Assembly (NCBI GenBank): GCA_001794635.1
Contig: MGKE01000007.1
Coordinates: 8,774-72,773, forward strand
Direction: 5' to 3'
Length of the DNA: 64,000 nucleotides
DNA from: Candidatus Yanofskybacteria bacterium RIFCSPLOWO2_01_FULL_39_28
GTDB taxonomy: Bacteria; Patescibacteriota; Minisyncoccia; 2-02-FULL-40-12; GWA2-44-9
The position numbers were made by a program, and so were the translations under genes. Shown here piece by piece: positions 4,620-61,370 of the stretch; positions within the stretch are counted from its first letter, which is position 1, and the number at the start of each line of letters is the position of its first letter. Under the pieces are notes generated by a model. It made no database searches. It was not told where the DNA came from and was given only the letters and a program-made list of their open reading frames with translations.

Positions 4620-5589
4620 ATATCTCCTTAAGTAGCTCTAGGTTTTTGTAATTGACGGCATAATCACAAGAGTTCACAAACCTGCCAACATCATTTTTGC
4701 CCCTAGCCATCCAGCCCGCTCCATCAATAAAATTAATAAATAGCACATCTTTTTTATTGGCCGCATTGTATCTCTTTATCGCAGAGAATAACGCATCGTT
4801 GGCGTCTCCTTTTTTAGTTTGACCAGAGGCAGTGGTTTTTGTATAGCTGCTTTCAATCAATATTTTCGGGTCTTTTTTATTAGGAATTATTAAATCTATC
4901 TTCGGGTTTCTTTCAGCTCCTGTGGTTGTTCTCTGGTAGTAACTTTCTAAAAGTTCTAGAGAACCCACTTCATATTTACCGTCTGGCACAAGTTTGCCTA
5001 TAATCTCTCTTTCTACAAATGTTCCTACCTTTTGACTAAATCTGCCTGAATATTTATCTTCCAACATAAGCCTCAATTTTGAAGTGTCTTTTTTAAGCGA
5101 GGATAAATTATTTATTACAAAACGTCTAAGGATTATCGGCTCATCAGCAAGTATTTCCATTAATAGTTTATCTTTGTGACCGCTTGTAAATATCCGAGAG
5201 AAAACTTTTATTAATTCCGGGTCTTCATTTATGCTTTCGAGATCGGCAACAGAAAGACCATATTTTTCATTAATAGCCGGAAGAATATAATTTTTTATCT
5301 TTTCATTTGATATGCCCGTGACCGCAAGGATTATAGCCCATCCAATATTTTCTTCTTTTGCTCCTTCGTTCATCATCAGGTCATATTCAGGCCGTCTCTT
5401 TATCGTTAAATCTATTACCTTTTTGAAATTATTTTCTGGGTTATCATCAAACTCTAATTTAGAAAAATCCTCTATAATGCTTTTAATAAAATTATCAAAT
5501 TGAGACGCCAAATCGGGCATTGGTATTGCCGGAGAAAGGGATTGATAGAATTCACCTAGAGATAGTCTCTGTGGTTTATTGTCGGTCAT
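4603..5589 (-). CDS. Putative type II restriction endonuclease (DpnII/MboI-like C-terminal core)
   Basis: Convergent with the methyltransferase and overlapping it by 17 nt. KIDLIIP..ILIESSYTKTTASGQ..FINFIDGAGW resembles, from memory, DpnII RFDFVI..LYLIEVNFYSGSGS..MWITDGQGW. Confidence 0.45.
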   Translation of the reverse strand: MTDNKPQRLSLGEFYQSLSPAIPMPDLASQFDNFIKSIIEDFSKLEFDDNPENNFKKVIDLTIKRRPEYDLMMNEGAKEENIGWAIILAVTGISNEKIKNYILPAINEKYGLSVADLESINEDPELIKVFSRIFTSGHKDKLLMEILADEPIILRRFVINNLSSLKKDTSKLRLMLEDKYSGRFSQKVGTFVEREIIGKLVPDGKYEVGSLELLESYYQRTTTGAERNPKIDLIIPNKKDPKILIESSYTKTTASGQTKKGDANDALFSAIKRYNAANKKDVLFINFIDGAGWMARGKNDVGRFVNSCDYAVNYKNLELLKEIFNYYL

Positions 5590-9118: not shown

Positions 9119-9323
9119 AAAGCAATGCAGGGAATGTGTAAAAACACAAAGCCCGCTACTAGGAAGAGGTCTTACGACCATCTCTGCCAAAGTTTCCCCT
9201 GGCAACGCGATGAACGCCCTAATAACGGGGTCTCTATGTTCATCGCGATTACTGACCATGCCCTGCAGAATCTGCCGAGTTTAGGCCTTTATTTATTATT
9301 AAATTGTGGTTTAATTCTACTAC

Positions 9324-10937: not shown

Positions 10938-12518
10938 ATGAATAAAAAAAATGCAATTGGATATTGCCGTGTCAGCACCGATGAACAAGCCAAACACGGT
11001 CTTTCTTTAGATGTTCAGGAAGAATCCTGTAAAATGGCCATCCAAAGTGATGGATATGAACTACTAAAAATAATCAGGGACGAAGGTAAGAGTGGCGGAA
11101 ACCTTAATAGAGCTGGGATGAGGGAATTAATATCGCTGGTCATAAATAAAAAAATAGATGCCATTTATACTATAAGCGGTGACCGCCTAAACAGAAATAC
11201 CCTGGAATACATGCAGTTGAGAAAGTTGCTACGAGAAAATGATATTGATTTGAAATACATTAACCAAGCAAACACTGATGACTCGGCCATGGGAAGAACT
11301 ATGGACACGGTTCTAGCTTCCTTTAACGAATTCCAGAGATTGCAAACATCAGAAAAAGTTAAAAAGGTTTCAGCCGCTAGGGTTGAAGCTGGTTATTTCC
11401 CTACGGGAGCCCCTATCGGCTACAAAAACGATATTAATCCAGACCCAAATGCCGACAGACTGGCGAAAAAGGTTATAGTTCCCGATGCAATGGCTCCACT
11501 GGTAACAGAGGCCTTTAAATTCTTTGCTACGGGCAATTTTAATGGTTACGACCTTTGTAATTTACTAAACCAGAAAGGATTAAGGACAAGGTACGGTAAG
11601 CCGATGCTACCAAGCCGATTCTATGAACTATTAAAAAATAGAATATATCTTGGAGAGGTTCATCATGGCAAAAATCATAACCCTAACGGAAAGCACAAGC
11701 CCCTTATAGATAAGGCGACATTTGACAGGGTCCAGTCCATTCTAGACGGCCACAATAAGCATGCCTGCAGACGTAGGAAGTATTGTTGGCTCTTGGGCGG
11801 CTTTGTATACTGTGCCAGGCATGGAAAGCGATATACAGCCGAGTGGCATCTAAACAAAAAGTTGGCTTATTACCACTGCACCAACAGGAATGGGTGCGGA
11901 AAATACATTGAGACCAACAAATTGGAGGCCTTAATAGCCGATAAGTTTAAAGACTTAGAATTTAACCCTGAGTTTATTGATAAGATAATAGAAAAGGCAA
12001 AAACGGCTTTTTATGCAAGCAGAGATGAGTATGATGCCAAAAGACAGGCCTTGGTAAACCAGAAAACGGCTTTTGAGGCGAAATTAAAATCAGCTGAAGA
12101 TAAGTTGTTCTCGGAAATATTGTTAAGTGATGACTATAAGAGGATAAGATATGAAGTTAAAACAGAAATTGAAAGCATAGAAGAACAATTAGCGCATCTA
12201 TCTCAAAGGCAAGAGGTCAAAGTGGACATAGCAAAAGAAATTCTGTCATTTACGAAAAATATTTACCTGACTTACAAAAAAGCTCCGCCTCATATTAAAA
12301 GGCATTACTTGAGTCTGTTTTGGGACAGATTTGAGATCCAAGATGGAGTTATAATAAAATCCGTTTCCTCTATACTGTTCAACCATCTTTTAGATCTGGA
12401 ACAGATCTACCTTAAAAATCAAAACCCCCAGATTACTGGGGATTCTGACGTTCTTATAAATATAGCAACAGAGCTCCGCGGCCAGGACTCGAACCTGGAA
12501 CCATCTCCTTACACATGA
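10938..12518 (+). CDS. Large serine recombinase (integrase); its 3' end is read from the tRNA-Asn 3' exon
   Basis: AIGYCRVSTDEQ catalytic motif, recombinase domain, Cys cluster YCARHGKRY..YHCTNRNGC, coiled coil. The last ~45 nt (ELRGQDSNLEPSPYT) are the complement of the tRNA T arm and acceptor, and the stop lies 7 nt inside the intron. Confidence 0.85.
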   Translation: MNKKNAIGYCRVSTDEQAKHGLSLDVQEESCKMAIQSDGYELLKIIRDEGKSGGNLNRAGMRELISLVINKKIDAIYTISGDRLNRNTLEYMQLRKLLRENDIDLKYINQANTDDSAMGRTMDTVLASFNEFQRLQTSEKVKKVSAARVEAGYFPTGAPIGYKNDINPDPNADRLAKKVIVPDAMAPLVTEAFKFFATGNFNGYDLCNLLNQKGLRTRYGKPMLPSRFYELLKNRIYLGEVHHGKNHNPNGKHKPLIDKATFDRVQSILDGHNKHACRRRKYCWLLGGFVYCARHGKRYTAEWHLNKKLAYYHCTNRNGCGKYIETNKLEALIADKFKDLEFNPEFIDKIIEKAKTAFYASRDEYDAKRQALVNQKTAFEAKLKSAEDKLFSEILLSDDYKRIRYEVKTEIESIEEQLAHLSQRQEVKVDIAKEILSFTKNIYLTYKKAPPHIKRHYLSLFWDRFEIQDGVIIKSVSSILFNHLLDLEQIYLKNQNPQITGDSDVLINIATELRGQDSNLEPSPYT

Positions 12519-12724
12519 TCCATAACTTTCGTAATGGGGTGGACTATCTTATGTCCCCAAAGGGACCCGGGTATATAGTCTCTACACATTTATCACTTGC
12601 GTGAATTTAGCTCGGGATTGCCAGTTTAAAGGTTTCCCCGAATTAGCCCGGTTTTTCATCGCGCATTTCTGCGCGAAGCTGCCTTACTCGACAGGGAGCC
12701 GCTCTACCATTGAGCTACCGCGGA
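12474..12724 (-). tRNA. tRNA-Asn(GUU) split by a group I intron (exons 12691-12724 and 12474-12511); CCA not encoded
   Basis: The joined exons give a 72-nt cloverleaf: acceptor UCCGCGG/CCGCGGA, D arm GCUC-AAUGGUA-GAGC, anticodon loop CUGUUAA, variable UGGUU, T arm CCAGG-UUCGAGU-CCUGG, discriminator G. Close to bacterial tRNA-Asn sequences as I recall them. Confidence 0.85.
12512..12690 (-). ncRNA. Group I intron, IC3-like, 179 nt, no internal ORF
   Basis: P1 CUGU|C:GGCAG with U.G at the splice site; P2 UCGCGCA-GAAA-UGCGCGA; AAUUCGGGGAAACC..GGCAAUCCCGAGCUAAAUUC; P6 UCAC-GCAA-GUGA; GUGUAGAGACUAU; P3 CCGGG/CCCGG; P8 GUCCC-UUUG-GGGAC; P7' AUAGUC; P9 CCAUUAC-GAAA-GUUAUGG; terminal G. Confidence 0.85.
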
Positions 12725-12916
12725 ATGTTTTCGTCTAGCCATTTTCTACCCTGACCAGACTTCAAAAAATGTTCTCTTCTGATTGCTTCTGTTCTTGTAC
12801 CGCATTCTTCGTAGTAAAGCAGTACAAATGGACTATTTGCTCGTGTCCACTTATTGCTTCCGACACTATGTTCACGAAGTCTACTTATTAGAACATCAAT
12901 CTACCAATCAGAATAT

Positions 12917-12990: not shown

Positions 12991-13032
12991 AATAATCTAA
13001 ACGGCTCACCATGGTGAGCCGTTTAGATTATT
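12991..13032. repeat. 42-nt perfect palindrome centred on CCATGG
   Basis: AATAATCTAAACGGCTCACC|ATGGTGAGCCGTTTAGATTATT equals its own reverse complement. No flanking T-run. Confidence 0.9.
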
Positions 13033-13145
13033 GAAGAAAAGGAATCTGACCCATTTTCTACTCGATGGACTGGTGATATTTACATCCATTTAAATAGTTG
13101 ATATATTAAGTGAAGTTTTTTGAACAAAGAAATAGGAAGAATAAA

Positions 13146-13325
13146 ATGAATTGTCCCCATTGCAATAGTAATTTCAAGACCACAGAAGAACTAAATGAAC
13201 ATAGAAGAGAAGTTGCCATTATTAACCGTATAAATATGACTCCTCAGGAAACAGAGAACAGGGAGAGAGCTTGGCAGGCCTTATTTGATTTAGAAGAACT
13301 GCGAGCCATATATCCTGGATTTTAA
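13146..13325 (+). CDS. Small C2H2 zinc-finger-like protein (59 aa)
   Basis: MNCPHCNSNFKTTEELNEHRRE (CxxC..HxxxH-like). AGGAAG lies 8 nt upstream of the ATG at 13146. A terminator follows. Confidence 0.6.
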   Translation: MNCPHCNSNFKTTEELNEHRREVAIINRINMTPQETENRERAWQALFDLEELRAIYPGF

Positions 13326-31698: not shown

Positions 31699-31786
31699 TG
31701 GCGGAGGCGGAGCGATTCGAACGCTCGATACCTTGCGGTATACTCGCTTTCCAAGCGAGCGCACTAGACCACTATGCGACGCCTCC
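31699..31786 (-). tRNA. tRNA-Ser(GGA), CCA encoded
   Basis: Acceptor GGAGGCG/CGCCUCC, anticodon arm CUCGC-UUGGAAA-GCGAG, long variable arm UAUACCGCAAGGUAUC, T arm GAGCG-UUCGAAU-CGCUC, then GCCA. Confidence 0.9.
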
Positions 31787-31845
31787 AAATAAAATCATGA
31801 TACTATCTTTTAAAATTACCAACAATATTACCAACTATGATGTGT

Positions 31846-31875
31846 CTTATAATTGTGCATATGCACAATTATAAG
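31846..31875. repeat. 30-nt perfect palindrome, 17 nt downstream of PaaX-like gene A
   Basis: CTTATAATTGTGCAT|ATGCACAATTATAAG. Near-copy of the palindrome at 32471-32512. Confidence 0.95.
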
Positions 31876-31892
31876 CAACTTTAAATATGCTT

Positions 31893-32420
31893 TTATAGAT
31901 TGTAATATCTCTTTAATTCTTCTTCCCTAGAACCAATGGAATTTGCCACGATAACATCTACATAATCAAATAAACCAAGTTGTTTGCATAAATCTCCAAG
32001 TTCTTCCTCGCACTTATAAGGAATAGTGAAAACACTTTTTTGCAGTATTTGAAAATCAAGATTTTTTAATCTGCTTCTTAGCCAGTTTCTTTCTTTATTC
32101 AAAGAATTTGGAATATCAAAAATAATCACTCGCCACTTATTGTCCCATCTTTTGTTTTTATTTTTTAAAGCAAAGTACTTAATTCTGGAATATTTAAACC
32201 AACCTATTCCTTGTTGTGTGAACTTATAACTATCTCCTCTCAAATTGGATAAAAAACCTCTGCCCTCCAGGTTTGTTAAACCCTTGCGAAATCTTTTATA
32301 TTCTGGCCCACTTACATGCCAACCTTTATAATAAATTGGTTGCCACTGCCACGTATCGTAAACATCAATGCCAAATCCTCCAATTGACTTAATTAATTTT
32401 AATACAAAATCTCCTTTCAT
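31893..32420 (-). CDS. PaaX-like protein: winged helix + Cas2-like-fold domain (gene A)
   Basis: KWRVIIFDIPNSLNKERNWLRSRLKNLDFQILQKSVFTIPY is the beta-alpha-beta pattern of the PaaX central Cas2-like domain. The N-terminal part is wHTH-like (FRKGLTNLEGRGFL). Confidence 0.7.
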   Translation of the reverse strand: MKGDFVLKLIKSIGGFGIDVYDTWQWQPIYYKGWHVSGPEYKRFRKGLTNLEGRGFLSNLRGDSYKFTQQGIGWFKYSRIKYFALKNKNKRWDNKWRVIIFDIPNSLNKERNWLRSRLKNLDFQILQKSVFTIPYKCEEELGDLCKQLGLFDYVDVIVANSIGSREEELKRYYNL

Positions 32421-32470
32421 GTTTAAACTTATAGTTTAATCGTAACTTTAAACTCATATTAACACTTCAT

Positions 32471-32512
32471 CAGTGTCTTATAATTATGCATATGCATAAT
32501 TATAAGACACTG
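32471..32512. repeat. 42-nt perfect palindrome, 50 nt upstream of PaaX-like gene A
   Basis: CAGTGTCTTATAATTATGCAT|ATGCATAATTATAAGACACTG equals its own reverse complement. Confidence 0.95.
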
Positions 32513-32556
32513 TGTTCTATATTGCAATACCCACCAGTGGAAATAAAAAGAGCTTT

Positions 32557-33147
32557 TTATAAGCTCTTTATTTTTTCTGCCAATTTTGAATAGAGTTCTC
32601 GCCGATGATTAATCTGCTCATGCTCTTCGTGGGTCAGCTCCTGATAGAGTTTTTTGAATCTTGGTATCCAGAAGATTGACCTAAACGGATAGCCAGGTTC
32701 ACATTTTATTCTCTGCTCCTCGGTAATAAAACCTTCAGTACTCCCCCTTTCAATTATCAAATTCTTTCCGTCATAGTAAGCACCGACGGCAATTAAGCGC
32801 GTTGTTCTTTTCTCCCACGGAATACCCTGCAGTTTGGCCAAAGCCGTATCAATCATTTCTTGGTCAGTCATCTCATATCCCAGCCAGCGACGGGATTTAA
32901 CCCCAGGTTCCCCCCCATTCAAAAAATCAATCTCCAATCCAGCATCGTCAGCCACGCAAGGAATACCAGACCATTTAAAATACGCCTTGGCTTTCAAAAT
33001 TGCATTTTCTTCAAACGTATTGCCGGTTTCCTCAATATCAGGAGCATCGGACAAGTCTTTAAGTGAGCTAACCTCGAAGTCTGTACCTAGAAACATGCCA
33101 ATTTCCTTAGCTTTGCCGGGATTTTTTGTCGCAACCAATATTCTCAT
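32557..33147 (-). CDS. rdgB: Non-canonical purine NTP pyrophosphatase (RdgB/HAM1 family)
   Basis: ILVATKNPGK..E, ETG.TFEENA.LKA, ADD(A/S)GLE, FRS.F motifs. Confidence 0.9.
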   Translation of the reverse strand: MRILVATKNPGKAKEIGMFLGTDFEVSSLKDLSDAPDIEETGNTFEENAILKAKAYFKWSGIPCVADDAGLEIDFLNGGEPGVKSRRWLGYEMTDQEMIDTALAKLQGIPWEKRTTRLIAVGAYYDGKNLIIERGSTEGFITEEQRIKCEPGYPFRSIFWIPRFKKLYQELTHEEHEQINHRRELYSKLAEKIKSL

Positions 33148-60679: not shown

Positions 60680-60715
60680 ATTAGGTAAATTCATCATATG
60701 ATGAATTTACCTAAT
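60680..60715. repeat. 36-nt perfect palindrome, 30 nt downstream of PaaX-like gene B
   Basis: ATTAGGTAAATTCATCAT|ATGATGAATTTACCTAAT. Confidence 0.95.
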
Positions 60716-60745: not shown

Positions 60746-61312
60746 TTAGACTAATATAATGCCGTTTCTTTTCTCAAAATCATAACGTAATTGTTCCTCC
60801 CCTGAAATCTCATGGCAAGTTATTTGGTGAATATATCTTTCAACTTCAAAAGCTTTGCCTACAACAGCGATTTCATTTTTACATTCAAAGGGGTAAGCCC
60901 AGACACTTCGCTGAAACATAACAAAACCAAGTTCTTTTAATTTTCCAAGTAAAGCGGCTCTTGCTTTATATTTCTTAGCTGGAATATCAAAAATAACCAA
61001 TCGCCAATTTTTATCCCACTGCTTCGGAGTTTCAACGGAAAGATTATCTAGGTTATATTTACGGGTATACTTTCGACCAGCCTTTGTCGTTGTAATAATA
61101 TACATACCATCCGAACTAGGTTCTATATTAATAAACCCTTTGCGTCTAAGGTGATATAAGCTGCTTCTAAATTGCTTCCATTTTCTTCTCTTTAGTTCTT
61201 TTTGGATCGCACCAACAGCCCTAAGGCCAAAATAAGGATTAGTGGCCGCAACTAAAACTACGCCTCCGACCACAAGTGTTGTTAATAAAATTCTTGAAAA
61301 AGGTTTATCCAT
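60746..61312 (-). CDS. PaaX-like protein: N-terminal TM + winged helix + Cas2-like-fold domain (gene B)
   Basis: NWRLVIFDIPAKKYKARAALLGKLKELGFVMFQRSVWAYPF parallels gene A. wHTH-like LYHLRRKGFI. N-terminal hydrophobic LLTTLVVGGVVLVAA. Confidence 0.7.
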   Translation of the reverse strand: MDKPFSRILLTTLVVGGVVLVAATNPYFGLRAVGAIQKELKRRKWKQFRSSLYHLRRKGFINIEPSSDGMYIITTTKAGRKYTRKYNLDNLSVETPKQWDKNWRLVIFDIPAKKYKARAALLGKLKELGFVMFQRSVWAYPFECKNEIAVVGKAFEVERYIHQITCHEISGEEQLRYDFEKRNGIILV

Positions 61313-61324
61313 AATTATTTCTTA

Positions 61325-61370
61325 TTACTATTAGGTAAATCTATCATATGATAGATTTACCTAATAGTAA
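61325..61370. repeat. 46-nt perfect palindrome, 12 nt upstream of PaaX-like gene B
   Basis: TTACTATTAGGTAAATCTATCAT|ATGATAGATTTACCTAATAGTAA. Confidence 0.95.

Follow-up and report, generated by a model that had tools for sequence, protein, structure and literature searches.

A family of mini-PaaX genes in Patescibacteria, nearly all of those examined bracketed by two copies of their own palindrome, a probable operator

We analysed a 64,000-nucleotide (nt) stretch of the genome of Candidatus Yanofskybacteria bacterium RIFCSPLOWO2_01_FULL_39_28 (contig MGKE01000007.1, positions 8,774–72,773; hereafter, the window), in which a gene for a small PaaX-like protein, gene A, is bracketed by two copies of a long palindrome. 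This arrangement proved near-universal among the approximately 150 closest relatives examined, each gene having a palindromic sequence of its own, and a symmetric binding site for a protein dimer (an operator) is the best-supported reading of these palindromes. The explanation that we favour, and regard as probable rather than secure, is that gene A encodes a dimeric mini-PaaX repressor with one operator at its promoter and an auxiliary operator just past its own stop codon. The gene A locus comprises the following elements:

31893–32420, minus strand: gene A, a 175-amino-acid (aa) open reading frame (ORF) encoding a mini-PaaX protein, with a winged helix at residues ~1–81 and a Cas2-like/PaaX_M domain at residues ~90–175.
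32471–32512: upstream copy (U), a 42-base-pair (bp) perfect palindrome with 21-nt arms (CAGTGTCTTATAATTATGCAT and ATGCATAATTATAAGACACTG) and zero spacer; its centre, CATATG, lies at 32489–32494.
31846–31875: downstream copy (D), a 30-bp perfect palindrome (CTTATAATTGTGCAT and ATGCACAATTATAAG) centred on CATATG at 31858–31863, with an imperfect extension to 31842–31880.

The positions and sequences of both copies, which were first reported by a first-pass annotation of the window, are correct. U is separated from the ATG by 50 nt and D from the stop codon by 17 nt; a single arm position (A/G) distinguishes the two copies, with a mirrored change in the opposite arm. Palindromes of this size are not expected by chance: when the window was simulated 100 times with a first-order Markov model, maximum zero-spacer arm lengths were 7–12 nt, compared with arms of 15, 18, 21, 21 and 23 nt in the real sequence. 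The palindromes of gene A are identical across six contigs from independent assemblies, as are those of gene B (below), so they are not an assembly artefact.

The same layout recurs with a different palindrome at a second gene, gene B, as the annotation had also reported, and both of its copies are perfect:

60746–61312, minus strand: gene B, a 188-aa paralogue, 35% identical to gene A and with the same two-domain fold.
61325–61370: upstream copy of gene B, a 46-bp perfect palindrome, 12 nt before the ATG.
60680–60715: downstream copy of gene B, a 36-bp perfect palindrome, 30 nt past the stop codon.

The two copies at gene B differ at two mirrored positions. Within the 64-kb window, each palindrome family is confined to its own gene.

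A profile search of 1.84 billion cluster representatives (50% identity) returned 6,589 relatives of the protein (4,943 at E ≤ 1e-10). Those located in genomes belong almost exclusively to Patescibacteria (candidate phyla radiation, CPR), nearly all of the best 150 are 170–230 aa long, and no relative was found in 2.9 million viral contigs. From genomes and metagenomes we assembled 159 non-redundant loci, and the bracketing tests cover the ~150 closest relatives. Flanks were compared by searching for a 24-mer common to the two 240-nt flanks of each gene with at most five mismatches, a procedure that is independent of palindrome detection and was controlled with shuffled pairs. A common, gene-specific 24-mer was present in 138 of 149 loci (~93%) compared with 12 of 296 controls and, when the centre of D was used as a probe, the upstream copy was recovered in 49 of 54 loci (controls, 6 of 268). 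In 85 of 153 loci a long palindrome lay no more than 200 nt from the gene, where ~6 would be expected from the density elsewhere in the same loci; within this distance, long palindromes are enriched approximately 19-fold. The sequence is private to each gene. The palindromes belong to the gene and are not generic repeats.

These gene-proximal palindromes have a median length of 38–40 bp, with perfect zero-spacer examples of up to 66 nt, and 94 of 120 (78%) have no spacer at all compared with 15 of 65 background palindromes. Median distances are 15 nt from the stop codon to the downstream copy and 30 nt from the end of the upstream copy to the ATG. Upstream copies are frequently degenerate, 31 of 45 being imperfect, and for that reason escape palindrome scans.

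The anatomy of the sites was examined over 132 pairs of copies. Complementarity across the dyad is 0.77–0.89 at positions 1–4 from the centre, falls to 0.55–0.67 at positions 5–8, rises again to 0.72–0.87 at positions 10–17 and is gone by positions 19–20, giving an averaged site of ~36 bp; identity between U and D within a locus follows the same positional profile. Of 85 perfect palindromes, 62 are centred on CGATCG, CATATG or CGTACG, and the arms are unrelated between paralogues. Loci without perfect palindromes retain the centre and the outer inverted blocks around a non-symmetric middle, as in locus L012 (TGTGTTATTC-TATGCT-CGTACG-CACACA-GAATAACACA). This is the signature of a site for a two-fold symmetric protein that makes contact at the dyad and ~1.3 helical turns away on each side, and not of a continuous stem. 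The asymmetry of the middle zone throughout the family shows that function does not depend on continuous pairing; a hairpin or cruciform as a general requirement, one of the two options that the first-pass annotation had offered, is not supported, given the drop in symmetry in this zone and the imperfection of most upstream copies. The zero spacer also favours a protein site, since symmetry running through the centre is needed by a dyad-symmetric complex and not by a hairpin.

At the 71%-identical orthologue of gene A the palindrome is kept, and the spacer to the ATG has changed in both length and sequence. We also looked for covariation between protein and palindrome. In partial Mantel tests the outer block leaned slightly towards the N-terminal domain and the inner block towards the C-terminal domain, but all correlations were weak (0.12–0.17). 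They are suggestive at most of a correspondence between the conserved centre and the Cas2-like body, and between the private arms and the winged helix.

The classification of the protein as PaaX-like, a winged helix-turn-helix domain followed by a Cas2-like fold, is supported. The Pfam model PaaX_M (PF20803) matches gene A with E = 6.9e-20 and gene B with E = 3.8e-18, both exceeding the gathering score, while CRISPR_Cas2 (cut-off 23.8) scores 25.2 for gene A (E = 1.9e-5) and 19.4 for gene B, and TIGR01573 reaches 22.6 against a cut-off of 24.5. AlphaFold2 models (mean predicted local distance difference test, pLDDT, 78.9 for gene A and 83.6 for gene B) contain a winged helix made of three helices and a beta-wing, a linker helix and a beta-alpha-beta-beta-alpha-beta domain. 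With Foldseek, the best Protein Data Bank (PDB) matches were PaaX (8a39, 136 aligned columns) and Rv0674 (3kfw), followed by many Cas2 structures; a PDB sequence search with the Cas2-like domain alone returned chance matches only. Full-length PaaX has ~300 aa. Pfam sequence search of gene A found neither PaaX_C nor the PaaX N-terminal family, the protein ends after the Cas2-like domain, and the PaaX equivalog model TIGR02277 gives 20.9 bits, well short of its cut-off of 264.55. Lacking the C-terminal domain and failing the equivalog model, the two proteins are PaaX-like in architecture but are not PaaX, and since the missing domain is the effector-binding one, sensing of phenylacetyl-CoA is not expected. 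PHROGs gave no match for the protein and PADLOC matched Cas2 models only. Invariant residues include the aspartate that ends strand beta-1 (D102, in FDIP) and QKSV, motifs that are common to Cas2.

A hydrophobic N-terminal 17-mer (Kyte–Doolittle mean ≥1.8) followed by a cluster of lysine and arginine residues is present in 78 of 159 family proteins, including gene B and excluding gene A. In gene B the hydrophobic helix covers residues 8–25 (61238–61291 of the window), where the AlphaFold2 confidence is low. This segment may be an N-out/C-in membrane anchor that tethers the DNA-binding domain to the membrane; if so, half of the family would tether chromosomal sites there.

Two further features place the upstream palindrome of gene A at a predicted promoter of a separate transcription unit:

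32499–32527, minus strand: predicted sigma-70-type promoter of gene A, TTGCAA (32527–32522), a 17-nt spacer and TATAAT (32504–32499), with 10 of 12 consensus matches.
32547–32569: bidirectional canonical terminator-like hairpin that straddles the stop codon of the upstream Ham1 gene (which ends at 32557).

The hairpin at the Ham1 stop codon sets gene A apart as its own unit. The consensus-matching −10 box lies in the distal arm of U and the predicted start point, at ~32492, coincides with the palindrome centre; relatives L009, L100 and L081 share this geometry. Gene B has a weaker predicted promoter (TTTACT-17-TATGAT, 61371–61343, 9 of 12) that likewise overlaps its upstream palindrome, with the −10 element at the centre. 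Across the family, a −10-like hexamer is found in the distal arm of 19 of 45 upstream copies compared with 9 of 45 downstream copies (P = 0.04), which could explain the lower symmetry of the upstream copies.

The model that we favour builds on the fold of the protein, the pairing of gene-specific sites, their anatomy and their overlap with the predicted promoter, and infers dimerisation, binding, repression and the function of the downstream copy. With the Cas2-like domain taken as the dimerisation module, by analogy with PaaX, a dimer would recognise a private two-fold symmetric site of ~36–42 bp, its variable winged helices reading the outer blocks ~10–17 bp from the dyad and its conserved body sitting over the conserved central hexamer (C-R-W-W-Y-G). 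Bound to U, the dimer would occlude the −10 box and the start point and so switch the gene off (negative autoregulation). The downstream copy, usually the more perfect of the two and placed in the first non-coding DNA past the stop codon, would act as an auxiliary operator through looping cooperation with the promoter site, through a block to transcription at the 3′ boundary, or both. A simple explanation of its placement would be that an auxiliary operator downstream of the promoter finds its nearest non-coding DNA there. In the gene A clade the downstream copy probably also couples the protein to an adjacent tRNA-Ser(GGA) gene, and symmetry at positions that the protein does not read would most simply be kept by template-switch homogenisation.

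Several observations weigh against this account. The downstream copy is both commoner and more perfect than the upstream copy, and accompanies next genes of either orientation (39 co-directional and 18 convergent, compared with 49 and 26 at loci without the copy), so the role that we assign to it is a guess. Direct-repeat alignment of U and D beats inverted-repeat alignment at 61 loci compared with 22, with 50 ties (133 loci, P = 2e-5), a preference that the model does not predict. Consensus promoters were found at just 5 of 30 upstream palindromes. Outer block and centre are not at a fixed distance: differences of up to ~3 bp per half-site exist among relatives and between the copies of one locus (L004 and L098), which a rigid dimer would not readily accommodate. 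D102 is invariant, as are other residues, which a pure scaffold role does not explain. Finally, 27 of the 38 differing arm positions in 22 cognate pairs are fully mirrored, and in L100 and L115 symmetry extends beyond the core common to both copies. Helical phasing of the U–D distance (572–856 bp), examined as a sign of looping, gave no signal (Rayleigh P > 0.48), a result that is uninformative over 570–850 bp.

The mirrored changes bear on how perfect symmetry arises. In template switching at quasi-palindromes the sequence of one arm is copied from the other, and inverted repeats can grow longer (PMC7202029, PMC8604942, PMC13100816), which would make the perfect state an attractor once the arms are long. 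Counts of asymmetric pairs per site have a bimodal distribution that peaks sharply at zero, the perfect state being over-represented relative to one or two mismatches, and mirrored insertions or deletions occur as well (L004). Perfect symmetry may result in part from template-switch homogenisation. The mirrored difference between U and D was read in the first-pass annotation as evidence of selection; the difference is real, but by itself it does not have that force, because template switching homogenises arms without selection. The present data cannot separate template switching from selection for cruciform formation.

In one alternative, the palindromes form cruciform or hairpin structures that are bound by the Cas2-like domain and cut or recombined at the conserved centre, the whole unit being an excisable, invertible or otherwise selfish cassette. 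In its favour are the length of the perfect zero-spacer palindromes, the excess of the perfect state, the mirrored substitutions, insertions and deletions, the extended symmetry of L100, the Cas2-type aspartate and Cas2-model similarity, the preference for direct orientation, and a centre with flanking inverted blocks that resembles lox, FRT or hix cores. A related proposal is that the Cas2-like domain is catalytically active and nicks, cuts or exchanges strands at the C-R-W-W-Y-G dyad of the two direct-repeat sites around its own gene while the winged helices dock the dimer on its private arms. If true, this would define a new Cas2-fold cassette for site-specific DNA processing and bear on the recruitment of Cas2 to palindromic CRISPR repeats. 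We regard the cassette as unlikely and the catalytic proposal as distinctly improbable. The asymmetric middle zone and the many imperfect upstream copies are hard to reconcile with a structure that must pair throughout, and Pfam and Foldseek searches of the protein identified no known recombinase or transposase fold. Nor does the unit appear to move. Among 32 pairs no target-site duplication was found, with no common 5-mer or longer at the junctions, and in the 22 + 22 contigs carrying the neighbours of genes A and B, respectively, the gene in question is always present in the same place and orientation, with no presence/absence or inversion variant of the palindrome–gene–palindrome unit. The 71%-identical orthologue of gene A resides in the same LemA–M48–Ham1 context and, as noted, viral relatives are lacking. 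That U and D are individually perfect though different argues against a recent crossover at the centre, which would give hybrid, imperfect palindromes. The earlier suggestion of a self-contained, possibly mobile cassette is accordingly not upheld.

The palindromes could instead work as RNA, forming 5′ and 3′ stem-loops of the messenger RNA (mRNA) for termination, 3′-end protection or RNase III processing in which the encoded protein takes no part. The predicted hairpins are indeed very stable (−17.7 to −28.4 kcal/mol, z-scores −5.5 to −10), the downstream copy is close to the stop codon, and canonical terminators are rare downstream of family genes (~7%). We think this reading improbable for a number of reasons. 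The loop bases are self-complementary in the 78% of palindromes without a spacer, which a hairpin does not need; the sense strand has no excess of G·U-compatible mismatches (7 G·T and 7 A·C); the private sequence of every paralogue goes unexplained; and the middle zone is asymmetric. With its predicted start point at the palindrome centre, gene A would have only half of U transcribed. No Rfam family reached threshold on the palindromes. As the first-pass annotation had concluded, the gene A palindromes are not ordinary intrinsic terminators: their stems are A+T-rich, they have no loop and they lack a true T-run. U was flagged as terminator-like on the plus strand only, on the basis of the tail TGTTCTATAT (five T in eight bases), and the canonical terminators elsewhere in the window (39193, 15724 and 59628) look unlike either copy. 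We also considered D as a stand-in for a canonical terminator, and this comparison was uninformative, terminators being equally rare with a palindrome (4 of 62) and without one (6 of 91). Under the repressor model the downstream copy may double as a terminator or roadblock.

A further alternative concerns the gene that follows. The downstream copy could be the operator or promoter of the next gene, the bracketing being a by-product of a regulator that precedes its target. At gene A the candidate target is:

31699–31786, minus strand: tRNA-Ser(GGA), identified by ARAGORN, co-directional with gene A and 59 nt after D.

This tRNA follows a gene A clade member co-directionally in four of four loci (the window; L081, 6605–6689; L082, 6652–6741; L086, 2486–2575), although the members are 53–100% identical and their upstream neighbours differ, which leaves the tRNA as the sole conserved neighbour. 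The presence of TATAAT within the arms, a gene B-type palindrome just upstream of Ham1 in another genome (described below) and tRNA genes within ~250 nt in ~10% of family loci point in the same direction. tRNA-Ser(GGA) may be a regulated target of gene A. As an explanation for the family, we give this alternative little credence: the downstream copy is equally frequent with a co-directional or a convergent neighbour, it lies between long convergent ORFs in many loci, and it keeps its place relative to where the PaaX-like gene stops and not to where the neighbour starts.

Copies of the palindromes away from their genes are few. We counted four extra cognate sites in 423 kb of neighbouring DNA compared with none in 1.6 Mb of controls. 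Third copies of a gene's own palindrome were seen 1.3–2.3 kb from the gene in L148 (33–76) and L078 (5658–5703). L081, from the genome whose gene A orthologue is the 71%-identical one, has a perfect 40-nt palindrome of the gene B type (TCATTCGGTAAATTCCTCAT and ATGAGGAATTTACCGAATGA, 5248–5287) in the interval from the M48 peptidase gene to Ham1; nothing of the kind is present at the orthologous position in the window. This is an orphan site and a possible target in trans. Orphan cognate sites are expected for a trans-acting factor with a small regulon and so fit the operator reading. Palindromes that occur independently of PaaX-like genes, which the first-pass annotation had named as evidence against its proposal, are encountered only marginally, in numbers that a small regulon would give.

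Such numbers also make it extremely unlikely that the palindromes are generic dispersed REP-like elements or attachment sites of nearby serine recombinases, a reading from which the confinement of each family to its own gene within the window detracts as well. What speaks for it is a third long palindrome near a large serine recombinase gene in the window and the presence of recombinase islands next to a relative. The former is a 42-nt perfect zero-spacer palindrome at 12991–13032 (AATAATCTAAACGGCTCACCATGGTGAGCCGTTTAGATTATT, centre CCATGG), 77 nt upstream of a 71-aa C2H2-like ORF (13110–13325); with no PaaX-like gene or pseudogene nearby, it may serve an unlinked paralogue as an orphan site. 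As for the latter, the contigs of the relative (L083–L085) differ by a recombinase island, and we tried the palindrome as its attachment site. This was rejected: the island begins ~210 nt downstream of tRNA-Ser, ~400 nt beyond the palindrome, and the breakpoint follows the tRNA and is not at the palindrome.

The neighbours of genes A and B are housekeeping genes, with Ham1, an M48 peptidase, tRNA-Ser, a GNAT acetyltransferase and TrpS among them, and no paa gene flanks either. The large serine recombinase gene (10938–12518, plus strand) immediately adjoins, on its 3′ side, a tRNA-like gene (12470–12730, minus strand) that was missed by ARAGORN and is interrupted by a group I intron (12520–12704; Rfam RF00028, 60.5 bits), which suggests an island integrated at a tRNA. 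A LOOT RNA (Rfam RF03000, 65.2 bits) is located at 9166–9287 on the minus strand.

CPR bacteria have tiny genomes with few recognisable regulators and, to our knowledge, almost none of their transcription factors has been characterised experimentally. We found no description of the present family in the literature that we searched. Each member carries its predicted binding site beside it, twice, which yields hundreds of protein/site pairs that could be used to derive a recognition code, to design orthogonal repressors and to trace regulatory wiring in uncultured organisms. The family is also a natural data set on the drift of long operators toward perfect palindromes, and it raises a general question, namely why a second site should lie right past the regulator's own stop codon in about 90% of cases.

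Several known systems share parts of this design. Cas2 and VapD have the same ferredoxin-like beta-alpha-beta-beta-alpha-beta fold, and have in common with the family the motif (F/Y)DI closing strand beta-1 and the motif QxSVF, but in the family the fold is fused to a winged helix. The window contains neither cas1 nor a CRISPR array: no 18-mer pair is spaced 20–120 nt apart, and only one 18-mer is present at least three times. As with REP elements and their RAYT transposases, a single-copy gene is flanked by copies of its own family-specific palindrome; here, however, the protein has no HUH/Y1 transposase domain, and the palindromes have no loop or spacer and do not occur in tens to hundreds of copies. 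The sites resemble loxP, FRT, hix and dif in their size (~30–40 bp), in the inverted blocks around a short centre and in the two, mostly direct, copies around the gene for the presumed binding protein, but differ in the absence of a recombinase fold, in the lack of rearranged variants among the 22 + 22 contigs and in copies that have diverged without hybrid sites. PadR proteins provide the best, though weak, PDB sequence matches to the N-terminal domain (E ~0.01), and dimerise via a C-terminal helix and not via a Cas2-like module.

The closest parallels are among classical repressors. In lac (O1/O2), gal (OE/OI) and deo, a weaker promoter operator is paired with a second, often better operator hundreds of base pairs past the start site. 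The layout of the family is alike except that its second site, 572–856 bp away, encloses the whole gene of the regulator. PaaX itself, from the phenylacetate catabolon of Escherichia coli W (8a39), is the best structural match and has the same winged helix followed by a PaaX_M domain. In E. coli, PaaX recognises the 39-bp sequence TGATTC-N27-GAATCA and, by sterically occluding RNA polymerase, represses its own promoter (PMC9493321). Its operator is thus likewise a long inverted repeat with widely spaced contacts at its own promoter, comparable to the family's sites of median 38–40 bp, for which binding is predicted. Unlike the PaaX operator, the family's sites have a conserved central hexamer, are often perfect palindromes and are accompanied, among the relatives examined, by a near-universal second site past the stop codon. 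The family is almost entirely from CPR, and no paa genes lie near these loci. The gene A family is a variant of the PaaX-type repressor/operator theme.

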